Shown: positions 152 to 5,056 of the stretch, one piece after another | How the letters are laid out: each line of letters opens with the position of its first letter | How positions within the stretch are numbered: position 1 is the first letter of the stretch | NCBI GenBank assembly: GCA_963745025.1 | Contig: CAVUWD010000020.1 | Location: forward strand, 1 to 64,000 | DNA length: 64,000 nt | DNA from: an uncultured delta proteobacterium | GTDB taxonomy: Bacteria > Desulfobacterota > Binatia > JACPRU01 | Direction of reading: 5' to 3' | Notes under the pieces: generated by a model | Told to the model about the DNA's origin: nothing | The model's input: the letters and a program-made list of their open reading frames with translations, nothing else | Database searches by the model: none | Program-made: the position numbers and the translations under genes

Positions 152-256
152 ATGAAGGAGTCTATCAAACCCGGCGCAGGCCGAAAGAGAAAGAGCGTCG
201 CGCGAGGAACGGGGTTGCCCGCGAGCCTCAAGGCTGTGCACCTCAACGCCGCCGGC
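152..256 (+). pseudogene. 5' stump of a probable IS110-family transposase, truncated by the IS3 element
   Basis: Perfect SD AAGGAGGT (137-144) and ATG 152. Reads MKESIKPGAGRKRKSVARGTGLPASLKAVHLNAAG and breaks exactly at the IS3 end. 'xNAAG(ID)' is the usual lead-in to the first catalytic Asp of IS110 DEDD enzymes. Short, so tentative. Confidence 0.5.
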
Positions 257-328
257 CCCTCTCTGCCAATGACGGTGAGACAGTCGGGGTGGCATAATTT
301 ACTGTAGAGGGCGGGGGGTCGAATATGG

Positions 329-814
329 ATGAAGGTGGTTGAGAAGAAGGCGAGGGATGAGATGATCGAGGAGGCCGGGGAAACGGAAGGAGCCCGTAGG
401 GCGACTGGAGTGTTCCCGGCCGGCGCGCCGCCGGCGGGGGCCACCCCCGACGCGGAGGTGGTGGCCAAGGCGGAGCGGCGGCGGTTCACGGCGGAGTACA
501 AGCGGCGGATCGTGCGCGAGGCGGATCGCTGCACGAAGTCCGGTGAGATCGGGGCACTGCTTCGGCGCGAGGGGCTGTACTCCTCGCATCTGGTGACCTG
601 GCGCGCCGCCCGTGACCGGGGCGAGCTCGAGGGGCTGTCGGCGAAGAAGCGTGGACCGAAGGTGGCACCGCCCGATCCGCAGCAGAAGAAAATCGCCGAG
701 CAGGAGCGCGAGATCGCGCGATTGACCAAGCGCGCTGAGCGAGCGGAGGGGCTGGTGGAGCTCCAAAAAAAACTCGCAACTCTTCTGGGGACCCCACTCG
801 AGAGCGAGAAGTGA
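329..814 (+). CDS. IS3-family transposase OrfA (HTH + coiled coil)
   Basis: RRRFTAEYKRRIVREAD...GALLRREGLYSSHL motif. A8 slippery run at 765-772 whose -1 frame is open into OrfB. Confidence 0.9.
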   Translation: MKVVEKKARDEMIEEAGETEGARRATGVFPAGAPPAGATPDAEVVAKAERRRFTAEYKRRIVREADRCTKSGEIGALLRREGLYSSHLVTWRAARDRGELEGLSAKKRGPKVAPPDPQQKKIAEQEREIARLTKRAERAEGLVELQKKLATLLGTPLESEK

Positions 815-1214
815 CCATCGAGACGGTGCGCGAGGCAGGAGCGACGCTCGGGATTGCGCCGGCGTGCGCGGCGCTCGGCCTGCCGACGGCGACCTACTAC
901 CGGCGGATCGGGCCGAAGCCACCGCTCGAACTTCGTCCGAGTCCGCCTCGTAAGCTCGCCGCCCCCGAGCGCGCGGCCGTGCTCGAGGTCCTGCACGAGA
1001 CGCGCTTCGTCGATCTGGCTCCGCCCCAGGTCTTCGCCCAGCTTCTGGACGAGGAGCGCTTTCTCTGCTCGGAGCGGACGATGTACCGGATCCTGGAGGA
1101 GAATCACGAGGTGCGGGAGCGCCGCGATCAGCTGCGCCACCCGCAGTACCCGGCTCCCGAGCTCCTGGCCACCGCACCGAACCAGGTCTGGAGCTGGGAC
1201 ATCACGAAACTGCT
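811..1214 (+). pseudogene. IS3 OrfB transposase, N-terminal part up to WSWDITKL
   Basis: CSERTMYRIL...PELLATAPNQVWSWDITKL. Homology stops abruptly at 1214. Confidence 0.9.
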
Positions 1215-1714
1215 CGAAACCGTCACATACTGCGCAGTTTCAGCGGTCGGTAACGATTCACTATCGTTGGCACCCCCTGTTCGGCGAGATGCTCGCGGTC
1301 AAGCGACCGAGTTCATCTGCTGACGGCGGTCGAGCGTTCATCTGCCTTCTTCCGGACGGGACGTGGGGAGCTATCCCCGAGTGGGTGACTTCGCGGGAGC
1401 GCTGTAGCCGCCTCAGGTTGGTGGACACTCCCGAGGTCTCCCTCGGCGCCCTTCTCGAGCTCCGGGCGTGCCTTGCAGAATTGCCGTCGCAGAGCGCTCC
1501 CGCAAAGATCCGAGTCGACAGCGCTTGTGGCGGAAAGGAGACTCGGAGGAATGGCGAGGACAAAGGCAGAGGGTCAATTGGACCTGAGGTGGACCGAGGA
1601 GATGCAGTGGGAGGACGTGCCGTCGCCGATTCGGGAGCGAATCCGAGATCAGCTCGGCGAGCTGTTGCGAGGCGCCGCAGTACGCAGCGGGCGCACCGAG
1701 GAGGTGGGCGATGA
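1215..1714 (+). CDS. Start-less accessory ORF (DUF5372/Y4bD-like, 'HYRWHPLFG'); its start is supplied by the element right end on circularisation
   Basis: Open frame SKPSHTAQFQRSVTIHYRWHPLFGEMLAV...LPDGTWGAIPEW runs from the junction with no ATG/SD before the conserved motif. Stop overlaps the recombinase ATG (ATGA 1711-1714). Confidence 0.6.
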
Positions 1715-1721
1715 CCAGTAG
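1551..1721 (+). CDS. Small 56-aa accessory protein preceding the recombinase
   Basis: Purine-rich SD-like sequence before ATG 1551. MARTKAEGQLDLRWTEEMQWEDVPSPIRERIRDQLGELL; overlaps the recombinase start. Confidence 0.55.
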   Translation: MARTKAEGQLDLRWTEEMQWEDVPSPIRERIRDQLGELLRGAAVRSGRTEEVGDDQ

Positions 1722-3812
1722 AGAAAAGATTCGTCCGCAGCATCTCGCCCGATCGGCACTCGTCTACATCCGTCAATCCACGCTTGGTCAGGTACGGCAT
1801 AACCACGAGAGCCAGCGTCGCCAATACGAGCTCGCTGAGAAGGCTCGAGAGCTCGGCTGGAGCGAGGTGGTCGTCATCGATGACGATCTCGGTAAGTCGG
1901 GAGCCAGTAGCGCCGGCCGGGTCGGTTTTCAGCGACTGGTTGCTACGGTAAGCCTTGGGCAAGCCGGCGCGGTGTTTAGCCTGGAGGTCTCGCGCCTCGC
2001 CCGCAATAACCGGGACTGGTACCAGCTCTTGGACCTTTGCGGGCTGGTGGACACCCTGATCATTGATGCCGAAGGCATCTACGATCTGCGCCAGCTCAAC
2101 GATCGACTTCTGCTGGGACTCAAGGGGACCATCAGTGAAGCGGAGCTCGGCTGGATCCGCCAACGCGCCTACGAGGGGCTTCTCGCCAAGGCGCGGCGAG
2201 GGGAGCTGATCCTGCGCGTCCCGGTGGGCTACGTGCGCGCTCGAGACGGACGCATCGAGAAACATCCTGACCAGCGAGTGCAAGAGGCCATTGGTTCGGT
2301 CTTTCGGAAATTCACCGAACAGGGGAGCGTTCGCCAGACTCTTCTCTGGTTTCGACAAGAGCAGATCCGCCTCCCGGCCCTCGAGCAGGACCATGCGTGG
2401 GGAGATCGGATCGTGTGGCGCTTGCCGCTGTACCATACGCTCCTGCGCATGCTGCAAAATCCCATCTATGCGGGCGCCTACGCTTTCGGCAGGACGACGA
2501 CGCGGACGCGGGTATCGACGGAGCGGCGCGCAAGACCGGAGGGCACCGCAGTGAGTCGAGTGAGTGGATCGCCTTGCTGCGCGACCACCACGAGAGCTAT
2601 ATCGGCTGGGAAACTTACGAGCGAAATCGGGAGCTGATCGCTCACAACGCACAGAGCTGGGGGCCGATGGGGATCCGAGGAGCGGCGCGGCAAGGCCCAA
2701 GTCTACTGGCGGGTCTACTGCGGTGTGGTCGCTGTGGGAGGCGGCTGTACGTTCGCTACGCGGGAGGCACCAAGATGGCGTGCCGCTACAGCTGCCGCGG
2801 TGGCGTGATGAATCACGGTGTCCAAGGCGGCTGCATCTCGTTTGGGGGACTTCGCGTCGATGAAGCTATGGAGCGAGAGGTCCTGCGGGTGCTCATGCCG
2901 GCAGCGATCGAGGCGGCGCTTGAGAGCGCCGAGAAGGCGGGAAACGACATCGAGACGGCTCGCAGCGCTCTGGAGTTGGAGCTCCGCGAGGCGCGCTACG
3001 AGGCAGCGCGAGCCGGACGGCAATACGACGCCGTCGAGCCCGAAAATCGCTTGGTGGCTGATACTCTGGAGCAGCGCTGGAACGCTGCGCTGCAGAGAGT
3101 AGGAGCCCTGGAGAGCCGACTCGAGGATCTCAGGCGCTCCCAGCCCCAGCACGTCCCCCCGGATCGAGCCACTCTTCTTGAGCTGGCTCAGGACTTCCCT
3201 GCAGTTTGGAATGACCCCGCGACGGATCACCGGACCAAGAAGCGGCTGATCCGTCTCCTCGTGGAAGAGATCGTCGCTGGACTTCCAACCGAAGACACAG
3301 TCGAGCTGGTGATTCACTGGAAAGGTGGCAAGCACACGATTCTCCGCGTACCGAAGAACCGACCAGGACAGCACCGCTACACCACGAGTCGCGAGGTCGT
3401 GGACGTGGTCAGAGACCTCGCCCGCTGTCTCCCGGATGGTCAGATTGCCCGCGTGCTAAATCGTCTCGGGTATCAAACCGGCGCCGGCAACACGTGGACA
3501 CAGGATCGGGTCGTGGGTCTGCGCAGCTATCACCAAATTCCGATCTTCGATCCCGAAGTCGAACGAGGGACCACACTCACCATTGCTCAGGCTGCCAGCG
3601 AGTTGGGCGTGAGCGAGATGACCGTGCGACGAATGATTGTCAGGGGTCTCCTGCCCGCGAAGCAGCCTGTTCCCTATGCACCGTGGTCCATTCAGCGCGA
3701 AGCCCTCAATGCCGGCGCCGTGCAGCAGGCCATCAAGGCGGTGAAGCGAGGCCGTCCCGTTCCGCAAACAGCTCCGACAGGACAGCTCAATCTAATGAAT
3801 TCAGGCACATAG
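1711..3812 (+). CDS. Large serine recombinase (~700 aa; resolvase, recombinase, Zn-ribbon, coiled coil, C-terminal HTH) with one frameshift near 2512
   Basis: YIRQST catalytic motif, DDDLGKSG, SRLARN, NPIYAG, LLAGLLRCGRCG. Two overlapping ORFs join with a single missing base (RTRV/IDGAARK). Confidence 0.9.
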
Positions 3813-3842
3813 CGAGGTGGGGCATTATGTCGCGAGAGCGCT

Positions 3843-4617
3843 TGGGCCGGCGAAGTGGACCTACTTCTACCTCTACGTGATCCTGGACATCTTCAGCCGC
3901 TATGTCGTGGGCTGGATGGTTGCCCACCAGGAGAGCGCGGCGCTGGCGAAGAAACTGATCGAGCAGAGCTGCACCCGGCAGGGAATCGTTGCGGGCCAGC
4001 TCACGCTGCATGCCGACCGCGGGTCCTCGATGAAGTCGAAGCCCGTGGCACTGCTGCTCTCGGACCTCGGGGTGACCAAGACCCACTCGCGGCCCTACGT
4101 CTCGAACGACAACCCCTTCTCCGAGGCGCAGTTCAAAACCATGAAGTACCGTCCCGAGTTTCCCGAGCGCTTCGGATCGATCCAGGACTCGCGCAGCTTC
4201 GGCCACGTCTTTTTCCCTTGGTACAACACCGAGCATCGTCACTCGGGGCTCGGGATGCTCACGCCCCACGAGGTCCACTACGGGCTTGCTGAGAAGCGGG
4301 TCGAGGCGCGGGCCCGAGTGCTCGCGGCTGCCTACGCCGCCCATCCCGAGCGCTTCGTCGCAGGGCTTCCGCAACCGCCGGCACTGCCGACCGAGGTCTG
4401 GATCAACAAGCCCACGGCGCCGCTCGCCGAGCCCAAGTACGTTTCGGATCCCGAGGTCGTGACGACCTTCGCGCTCAGAGCCCCGAACAGCCCCGCAGCG
4501 GACTCGACCCAGACCCAGGTATCCCCCCGAATCGGCACCGGTGAGCCATTCGCATCGATCGACAGCGGACTCCACAGAGCGGCCGTGGTGCCGCTCAACA
4601 CGGAGGATCTACACTAA
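3843..4617 (+). pseudogene. IS3 OrfB transposase, C-terminal DDE part
   Basis: LGPAKWTYFYLYVILDIFSRYVVGW...HADRGSSM...SNDNPFSEAQFKT. Confidence 0.9.
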
Positions 4618-4657
4618 ACTCGGAAACCGACTGTCTCATTGTCATTGACAGGCTCCG

Positions 4658-5056
4658 CCGTACCATCTTGCCGTACTGGCCGCGGCATACGGCCAAGCAG
4701 GGCGCACAGACGATGCCCTCGCCCTCGTGGCCGAAGCCCTGGCTCTGGTGGAAAGCCGCGACGAACGCTGGTGTGAAGCGGAGATACACCGCGTGAAGGG
4801 GGAGCTACTGTTCGGGTCCGGGGGTTCTTCCGAAGCCGAGACGTGCTTTCGCCGCGCCACAGAAATCGCGCGCCGCCAGAGCGCGAAGTCTCTCGAGCTC
4901 CGCGCGGTGACGAGCCTGAGTCGTCTACTCAAGAAGCAAGGCAAGGAAGAAGAAGCGCGACGGATCCTCGCCGAGATCTACGGCTGGTTCACCGAGGGAT
5001 TCGACACGGCGGATCTGAAGGACGCGAAGGCGCTCCTCGAAGAGCTGTCAACCTGA
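4658..5056 (+). pseudogene. C-terminal TPR fragment of a cyclase-AAA-TPR protein
   Basis: In frame from the IS end: PYHLAVLAAAYGQAG...EAEIHRVKGELL...SLELRAVTSLSRL...YGWFTEGFDTADL. Confidence 0.8.

Follow-up and report, generated by a model that had tools for sequence, protein, structure and literature searches.

A 2.6-kb large serine recombinase element in an IS3-family transposase gene, and its relatives in motif codons of transposition genes

We analysed a stretch of 64,000 nucleotides from an uncultured delta proteobacterium of the Binatia (positions 1 to 64,000 of contig CAVUWD010000020.1, here C20:1-64000, in the 20-contig, 5.6-Mb assembly GCA_963745025.1), called the window below. It carries an insertion sequence (IS) of the IS3 family whose transposase is cut before its DDE core by an inserted element of 2,628 bp. 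The insert is a site-specific integrated mobile element, recombined at the dinucleotide CT without target duplication. Taking it together with its relatives, we read it as a two-gene element, composed of a small gene, orfX, and a gene for a large serine recombinase (LSR) of about 700 aa, in which the complete orfX would be found in the excised circle, and which belongs to a family with targets in the codons of conserved motifs; we put the probability of this reading at roughly 0.8. A preliminary description of the same DNA had proposed a minimal serine recombinase element. The LSR stands, and a second conserved gene, split by integration, must be added.

Insertion site and crossover

The element was located at 1213-3840 of the window (equally 1215-3842) on the forward strand, where it splits orfB of the IS between DITKL and LGPAKW, five codons past the W-D-I-T motif and in sense orientation. 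The D of this motif is presumably the first catalytic Asp of the IS3 transposase. The rve profile match of the C-terminal orfB piece begins at profile position 19, which places the junction near the start of the DDE core. The bases GCT are all that the two junctions have in common (1212-1214 and 3840-3842); therefore the insertion made no target duplication, in agreement with the preliminary description, which had placed it between WSWDITKL and LGPAKW and had taken the target to be a conserved coding stretch of the transposase.

The same genome holds the IS once more, at C13:482792-484556 and behind another left flank; this copy lacks the element and is uninterrupted and in frame at the junction. 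It showed 100% identity over the 956 bases left of the junction, and 1,761 of 1,768 aligned positions were identical overall. The scarless, in-frame excision product predicted for the window matches this empty copy. Within about 90 bp of its orfB (~484,050-484,140, equal to window 4150-4240) the C13 copy has four 1-bp indels and a few substitutions, which represent either a decayed transposase or a local assembly error, and contig C13 terminates exactly at the right end of the IS.

Through sequence search, the element was found as a single occurrence in the source genome. Contigs from four of four metagenome runs (soil and groundwater, two studies) join 1211 to 3840 and skip 2,628 bases. Other metagenome joints, with replaced letters, are read as empty sites of diverged IS relatives. 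One odd back-joint among the metagenome contigs runs from 3275 to 1442 at a depth of 2.

The search for related genomes covered 41 genomes including the source genome, and an LSR match was found in six. One of them, from a sister species of the same genus (G001), contains the whole composite of IS plus element at another genomic place, with the same insertion site. Between the window and G001 the element differs by 66 substitutions in about 2,596 bases (2.5%; 97.5% identical), and the IS parts differ by 227 substitutions in 1,659 bases (13.7%; about 86% identical). Third positions differ too, with 15 per 267 codons in the N-terminal part of the LSR gene and 57 per 258 codons in the C-terminal part of orfB. 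Divergence of the element is thus about one fifth of that of its IS, and therefore the two composites represent separate insertions into IS copies that had already diverged, as expected from the earlier proposal that the element spreads between IS copies. G001 has five related IS copies, one occupied and four empty at the site (77-92% identical to the occupied copy). The reconstituted attB, for which a search had been proposed, has an exact counterpart in the C13 copy; empty-site joints were present in all four runs, and the empty copies of G001 agree at the junction. The IS had also been called multicopy, and a second copy is indeed present, although only two IS copies exist in the source assembly. 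It had further been proposed that the element rides inside intact IS ends and switches the host transposase off reversibly; the composites of window and G001 do not represent one transposed unit, and neither an excision event nor a circle junction was seen among metagenome contigs, in which rare forms would be missed.

The bases common to both G001 junctions are CTCG, and their overlap with the GCT of the window is CT. Since the two junction ambiguities share CT alone, the crossover is pinned to this dinucleotide, at 1213-1214 in the left junction (attL) and at 3841-3842 in the right junction (attR).

Attachment arms

The left arm of the element (P' arm of attP, 1215-1234, forward strand) contains the distal motif ACATAcTGC, and the right arm (P arm, 3821-3840, forward strand) contains GCAtTATGT. 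These two arms match at 12 of 20 positions (p = 0.004 against random 20-mers from the window) with the symmetry centre exactly at CT, so that the 2-bp crossover between imperfect inverted half-sites suggested in the preliminary description is borne out. The attP-like inverted repeat exceeds chance. Between the two target arms, no more than 6 of 20 positions agree (p = 0.5). All four arms are identical at offsets 8, 11 and 14 (p = 0.017), and the summed identity of element arms against target arms gave p = 0.047; the four-arm pattern alone is marginal. We consider the half-site pattern plausible, and it is carried by the comparison of the family rather than by the window locus alone.

The four 8-mers at offsets 7-14 had been correctly read in the preliminary description. 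Of the pattern sGysAnrT proposed for them, the symmetry of the element arms was upheld, the sharing by all four arms is marginal, and the likeness of the target arms to each other was not recovered. The extension of the element arms as ACATAnTGC held, and the distal motif of the left arm is kept in the consensus of the IstB-targeting clade described below.

The large serine recombinase gene

The LSR gene is split over two frames, 1711-2637 and 2397-3812, both on the forward strand. Its N-terminal part (1711-2512) matched Resolvase (PF00239, E = 1.7e-22, residues 16-165) and Recombinase (PF07508, E = 4.7e-8). The C-terminal part (2514-3812, frame 3) contains a zinc ribbon (Zn_ribbon_recom, PF13408, E = 4.2e-7), a putative coiled-coil region, the HWKGG hairpin and an extra C-terminal extension with HTH_17. 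No match to DUF4368 was present among the Pfam hits of either fragment (E <= 0.01). In the alignment of 45 family members the nucleophile Ser of the YxRQS motif is invariant, as are four Cys (C339, C342, C362 and C375 in G001 numbering). A helical, heptad-like stretch at about 400-475 can also be seen by alignment.

The frameshift lies at 2513, where the source assembly is one base shorter than G001 and the metagenome contigs. In G001 the LSR is a single open reading frame (ORF) of 699 aa with one extra base at this place, and the extra base was also found in 2/2 metagenome runs covering it, of which one contributed many contigs alike by at least 99%. The source assembly alone therefore has the frameshift. 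Compared with G001, the N-terminal 268 residues of the protein are identical and the C-terminal part is 97% identical; first and second codon positions account for 12 of 25 substitutions in the C-terminal part and for 1 of 16 in the N-terminal part. Elsewhere in the source genome, a single LSR-like match was found, a 26-29% identical paralogue on contig C8, and no second close copy.

Programmed -1 frameshifting was considered for the LSR gene and rejected: no slippery heptamer was seen at 2513 by reading, and the orthologues are single ORFs. Among the relatives, 8 of 63 LSR genes contain internal stops or frameshifts (L019, L025, L043, L049, L067, L083, L085 and L087), and decayed copies are common in the family.

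The split gene orfX

Upstream of the LSR gene, orfX occupies 1214-1714 on the forward strand in frame 2, with its first five codons missing. It encodes a conserved domain of about 95 aa (Y.WHP ... P.WM) followed by a disordered tail, and its TGA overlaps the ATG of the LSR gene as ATGA. Against G001, 8 of 10 substitutions in 1214-1450 fall on third positions of frame 2. By tblastn, 32 of 80 related loci gave a match to its product immediately before the LSR. Alignment of 45 members showed a conserved domain of about 95 residues with Y17, H20, P21, P55 and W57 invariant, and a variable tail. The overlap of orfX stop and LSR start is ATGA in 45 of 56 loci and GTGA in five more. DUF5372 (PF17342) was matched by 10 of the 45 members with a best E of 4.2e-7, which points to orfX as a distant DUF5372 relative.

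The missing start may be provided by the other end of the element. At 3814-3829 on the forward strand the right end contains a Shine-Dalgarno (SD)-like sequence (GAGGTGGGG) and an ATG, and the crossover lies 14-15 nt past the A of this ATG. This right end, with the LSR stop, an SD-like GAGGTG and the ATG, is conserved across clades, and the SD-like motif precedes the ATG in 52 of 56 loci. When the right end is joined to the left end, the ATG is in frame with orfX, whose homology starts at the first codon past the junction, and the frame across the joint is kept even in clades whose orfX identity is down to about 20%. An in-frame ATG lies between joint and Y.WHP motif in 3 of 56 loci, and any of ATG, GTG or TTG in 12 of 56; many flanks have an in-frame stop and no start before the joint.

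At offset 14 an inverted repeat of at least 9 of 20 positions was found in 47 of 81 loci (mean 10.2), compared with 0-8 of 81 at control offsets (means 5.0-6.6). Independent boundaries agree with this geometry, namely the empty site of the window, G001, three copies in one metagenome-assembled genome of Planctomycetaceae, and four Paraburkholderia or Caballeronia loci with different flanks. These features of the sequence suggest that full-length orfX and its ribosome-binding site would exist only in the excised circle.

Frame 2, the frame of orfX, is also free of stops over 134 codons upstream of the left junction (window 815-1213), a stretch that opens directly behind the stop of orfA, and likewise in G001. 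This is probably an effect of high G+C content, yet it leaves room for an orfX fusion started upstream in the IS3 target. The idea that a frame-3 ORF at 1551-1721 (orfY) is a second small gene was discarded; the family-wide gene is orfX in frame 2, which extends as far as the LSR start, and orfY gave weak matches in four close loci and no family.

Predicted structure of OrfX and its contact with the recombinase

AlphaFold2, run on an alignment of 45 sequences, predicted OrfX as a small domain of four strands followed by helices, with a disordered tail; the mean pLDDT of ten-residue blocks was at least 88 over residues 11-90. A Foldseek search with this model returned only weak Tudor or SH3-like barrels (best E = 0.019, none <= 0.001).

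The complex of the G001 LSR (699 aa, 45-row alignment) with residues 1-100 of OrfX was modelled with ipSAE of 0.70, 0.69 and 0.71, the best control being 0.00, and passed the mark set by the tool; in calibration this mark was reached by 58 of 80 solved complexes and by 2 of 110 mismatched pairs, a yardstick that applies only roughly to a model built on our own alignments. Contacts were shared between runs to at least 75%, with a partner pLDDT of 72-73. On the LSR side, OrfX is predicted to touch the zinc knuckle (335-345), the coiled-coil base helices (390-407 and 484-517) and the HWKGG hairpin (534-544). The model thus supports OrfX binding at the junction of zinc domain and coiled coil of the LSR, where directionality factors act. 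Passages of PMC12286644 describe known recombination directionality factors (RDFs) as binding the junction of DNA-binding domain 2 (DBD2) and coiled coil despite their diverse folds.

Related elements and their targets

Through a scan of one genome per species, we confirmed 550 relatives, of which the best 80 (42-100% identical) come from many phyla and often lie on contigs of 2.5-4 kb. At least 8,000 homologous protein clusters exist, named just 'DNA invertase Pin-like', 'excisionase family' or 'recombinase family protein', and 491 plasmid records contained a match, mostly from Rhizobium, Sinorhizobium and Bradyrhizobium. In pairwise comparison the unit common to relatives was always about 2.6 kb, and the resolved units measure 2,544-2,677 bp.

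Junctions were resolved in 64 of 81 loci, window included; the 17 others involve contig ends, decayed ends and a second insertion (L013). Transposition or recombination genes hold 56 of the 64 resolved insertions. The largest class, with 40 loci, sits in the Tyr codon of the C-terminal YNxxRPH motif of an rve transposase; it consists of 35 of the 38 loci with a TA core and of five script-assigned loci with another core, four of which were filed by junction reading, and three as mis-set junctions. Ten loci lie in the Walker A codons of IstB, between GP and PGxGK(S/T)HLA, with cores GG, GT and GA. The IS3 orfB site with core CT was found at two loci (window and G001), an IS91-family transposase at two loci plus G023, and a tyrosine recombinase at two. 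Three insertions are in non-mobile genes (DNA polymerase III alpha, DUF1559 and DruA). For five loci no target family was assigned; fragments of L025, L042, L078 and L090 gave no Pfam match, and the fifth, L019, is a short fragment.

Family searches of the target fragments gave rve in 21 of 26 (25 TA-core loci plus L073, with L036, which duplicates L035, omitted) and IstB_IS21 in 13 of 15 from eight loci. Further matches were Y2_Tnp, Zn_Tnp_IS91, Phage_integrase and DruA, with Y1_Tnp at the flank of G031. In an annotated Mesorhizobium plasmid the LSR gene adjoins a truncated 'ATP-binding protein' gene and istA. A junction of the TA clade was confirmed by an uninterrupted, 93% identical paralogue (L103) in the same genome, which likewise leaves a 2-bp core and no target duplication. 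An empty paralogue of the L063 target was also searched for in its genome, where only the occupied copy was found.

Target class is clustered on a FastTree phylogeny of 57 LSRs, from which eight loci with internal stops and the window itself were excluded. The rve-YN class needed 4 changes compared with 17.2 after shuffling, and the IstB class 3 compared with 8.5. The G001 lineage falls inside the IstB-targeting clade with a support of 100. The preliminary description had proposed to map the insertion sites of close homologues. The closest relatives (LSRs 52-67% identical) turned out to sit in the IstB Walker A codons and not in IS3 transposase genes, in sequence that nevertheless resembles the IS3 site; the right target arm of the window agrees with 7 of 9 consensus positions of the right arm of the IstB site. 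Because the G001 lineage is nested in the IstB clade and the right arms are alike, the IS3 site is read as a derived target, reached by retargeting to a look-alike of the IstB site. Taken together, this is a very large family of many phyla, in which the target differs from one LSR clade to the next and is in each case a stretch of a transposition or recombination gene that codes for a conserved motif.

The 40 rve insertions, like the 10 IstB insertions, are without exception antisense to the gene they interrupt. In the largest clade the junctions share only the self-complementary TA (for example L067:5464 and 8093, L039, L070 and L076), and the orientation is uniform. By the usual rule for LSRs, a self-complementary core should permit both orientations.

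Several single loci are of interest. In L013 (893-5594) orfX is broken after its first ~28 codons, which are 4.7 kb upstream of the remainder, and the gap holds an IS21-like pair, an IstA-like gene (HTH, rve, Mu-transpos_C_2) and an intact IstB gene; here, therefore, the usual prey family had inserted into the LSR element. L092, on a plasmid of Bradyrhizobium barranii (NZ_CP088281.1, 100063-108102), has an IS66 family transposase gene flanked on both sides by units of 'hypothetical protein + recombinase family protein', which suggests that IS66 is a further target class, with one gene hit twice. In L037 (2857-3423, minus strand) the frame that continues the IS91-family target past the left junction contains a DUF5372 domain (E = 1.6e-24), and it may be the orfX of a second, oppositely oriented related element. 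In L075 the Druantia defence protein DruA was matched on both sides of the junction (1-165 and 2713-3348).

Proposed cycle and alternative explanations

From these data we propose the following cycle. The LSR would excise the element as a circle whose joint is an imperfect palindrome of 19+2+19 (attP), and the IS gene would be restored exactly. The circle alone would join the SD-like sequence and ATG of the right end in frame to orfX, which would be translationally coupled to the LSR gene through ATGA, so that full-length OrfX would mark the excised state. OrfX would then bind the junction of zinc domain and coiled coil of the LSR and bias the direction of recombination, most coherently toward integration. 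While integrated, the LSR alone, transcribed by read-through, would excise the element, and the circle would then make OrfX and LSR and integrate. In phages the RDF drives excision and blocks integration. Because under that rule an excision factor made only after excision would be senseless, the integration-promoting role is preferred. The full picture, of hyperparasites homing into the codons of conserved catalytic or nucleotide-binding motifs, with split orfX as a sensor of state and OrfX as an inverse directionality factor that permits integration, excision being the work of the LSR alone, is a tentative one, and we would sooner expect some part of it to need revision than all of it to hold.

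A number of points weigh against the two-gene reading or against this cycle. A directionality factor confined to the circle runs counter to the phage rule. No circle junction, from right end back to left end, was found among the metagenome contig joints, which are blind to rare forms. No sigma-70-like site was found inside the element by a consensus scan, the three sites in 200-4700 all being in IS sequence, and the promoters of this organism may differ from the consensus. If its frameshift is real, the window copy could not move alone. The window orfX itself had no match in Pfam (DUF5372 at E <= 1), NCBIfam or PDB sequences, and its family membership is weak. The right-end ATG lies inside an LSR binding arm, and its conservation could partly reflect DNA recognition. 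The search for joint-spanning ORFs is permissive, with 59 of 81 loci positive at the true offset and 32-54 of 81 at control offsets; as it barely discriminates alone, only the joint ORF combined with arm symmetry is specific. Finally, the target classes of loci beyond the family-searched fragments rest on the reading of junction motifs.

The main alternative for orfX is that it encodes an ordinary RDF for excision, made while the element is integrated from an unrecognised start (a non-canonical codon or an upstream fusion), the right-end ATG being kept as part of a binding arm. The predicted site of OrfX on the LSR is the one used by known RDFs, the ATG lies within the P arm with a palindromic partner motif on the other arm, and in 12 of 56 loci an ATG, GTG or TTG does precede the conserved motif. 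However, the other 44 of 56 lack a canonical start between the joint and the N-terminal motif, and many flanks have an in-frame stop; moreover, neither the SD-like motif before the right-end ATG in 52 of 56 loci nor a joint frame kept at about 20% orfX identity fits with this explanation, which we regard as unlikely, though it deserves to be kept in mind. A different doubt concerns the window copy only, which might be a dead relic, immobile through a real frameshift and leaving the IS permanently inactivated. The frameshift is present in the assembly, the genome has no other close LSR copy, the C-terminal part has accumulated first- and second-position substitutions (12 of 25, against 1 of 16 in the N-terminal part), and internal stops occur in 8 of 63 relatives. 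On the other side, the extra base is present in both metagenome runs covering the site, and the four 1-bp indels within about 90 bp of the C13 IS copy suggest local assembly errors. We find a relic a serious possibility, at a little less than even odds.

The bias to transposase genes might also be a matter of survivorship, with insertion at short, loose motifs throughout genomes rather than targeting. The three insertions in non-mobile genes among 64, the occurrence of identical LSRs in different genes (L061 and L063) and the only partly conserved target arms of the TA clade would be explained in this way. It is improbable considering that 40 of 40 rve insertions are at the same Tyr codon in one orientation and 10 of 10 IstB insertions at the same Walker A codon, that the target class follows the LSR phylogeny, and that other dispensable genes are almost absent. 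More improbable still is spread mainly as a passenger of the IS, the composite being mobilised by transposase in trans: the window and G001 both retain intact IS ends around the element, and the composites are at different genomic places, yet the element has diverged about five times less than its IS, and its relatives are found in unrelated IS families. We retain the site-specific two-gene element with targets in motif codons as the best account of these loci.

The host insertion sequence

The IS was assigned to the IS3 family by an HTH_Tnp_1 orfA, an rve core in an orfB in the -1 frame, an A-rich run and TG...CA ends; all its features lie on the forward strand. Its left end (256-287) contains, at about 264-287, a terminal inverted repeat with TG as its first bases; an inverted match was found in the right end, and a sigma-70-like site lies at 269-298. 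Similarity to the C13 and G001 copies begins at 253-256. The gene orfA (329-814) encodes 161 aa with HTH_Tnp_1, and a run of eight A at 769-776 lies just 5' of the overlap with orfB. The N-terminal part of orfB (811-1212), in the -1 frame (frame 1), ends in ...VWSWDITKL and matched transpos_IS3 (E = 1.2e-13); in the occupied gene its frame reads on into the element to a stop at 1323. The C-terminal part (3844-4617) begins with GPAKW..., LGPAKW resuming at 3841/3844, and contains the rve and rve_3 domains. NCBIfam transpos_IS3 is the top family for both pieces, which as fragments are under its full-length cut-off. The right end (4625-4654) has the inverted repeat ending in CA at 4648.

Comparison with known systems

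Close parallels in mechanism are TnpX of Tn4451 and Tn4453 and TndX of Tn5397, where an LSR alone moves a small element by way of a circle (as proposed here) with a 2-bp crossover and no target duplication. The circle joint of Tn4451 reportedly creates an expression signal for the recombinase. Transposons of the Tn4451 and Tn5397 type carry cargo genes and use GA cores, whereas the window element has no cargo, its second gene is split by integration, and its targets are motif codons of transposition genes. The clade of multi-targeting LSRs of the TnpX/TndX type is described in passages of PMC10083194 as bearing DUF4368, found in 63% of the clade. No such domain was matched in the window LSR, whose C-terminal extension has HTH_17 instead.

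Phage LSR integrases that work with an RDF (Bxb1, PhiC31, A118/LI and SPbeta) share with the element the order of domains, from catalytic through recombinase to zinc ribbon with coiled coil, an imperfectly palindromic attP at a 2-bp core and a small partner, here predicted at the DBD2-coiled-coil junction. In contrast to them, the unit is a 2.6-kb non-phage element, and its partner gene spans attP and is complete only after excision, the opposite timing for an excision factor; the largest clade also has a palindromic TA core and yet a uniform orientation. IS607 resembles the element in using a serine recombinase as the transposase of a minimal element, without inverted terminal repeats of the DDE type and without target duplication. 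Its TnpA, according to PMC4058570 and PMC6188088, is a small serine recombinase with an N-terminal DNA-binding domain and minimal target specificity. The enzyme of the window family differs in being an LSR of 700 aa with defined targets.

Circle-junction promoters are formed by IS3, IS911, IS30 and IS21, and the integrase gene of SSV1-type viruses is split by integration. In these systems too an expression unit is assembled by circularisation and dismantled by integration, and thus reports the state of the element. They employ DDE transposases or an archaeal tyrosine integrase, while in the present family an accessory gene coupled to a serine recombinase would have its start codon and ribosome-binding site split off.

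A full-text search of the literature returned no paper that mentions DUF5372, nor any that deals with serine recombinases having transposase genes as targets. PMC10083194 reports clusters of LSR target genes and the DUF4368 multi-targeting clade; the passages of its main text do not mention transposase targets, and its Supplementary Fig. 1b, on Pfam domains enriched among LSR target genes, could include rve or IstB. The element is thus an LSR-based integrative element of a known kind, and we found no description of its fixed 2.6-kb two-gene format, its specialisation on motif codons or the start of a partner gene spanning attP.

Significance

In current annotation the two genes are labelled 'recombinase family protein' and 'hypothetical protein', and the interrupted transposases remain as fragments. 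If our reading is right, the family would offer a very compact, self-contained LSR system of about 2.6 kb and two genes, with att sites readable from many natural pairs of occupied and empty sites. A natural retargeting, from the Walker A site of IstB to the IS3 site, would be traceable on the tree and would bear on the evolution and engineering of LSR specificity. Uniform orientation around a TA core that is palindromic would call into question the rule by which polarity is set by nothing but the central dinucleotide, and a partner gene that exists only when the element is excised would be a new way of setting the direction of recombination. The family would also be a clear bacterial case of selfish DNA specialised on other selfish DNA, and it could hold IS activity in check among soil bacteria and on the plasmids of rhizobia.

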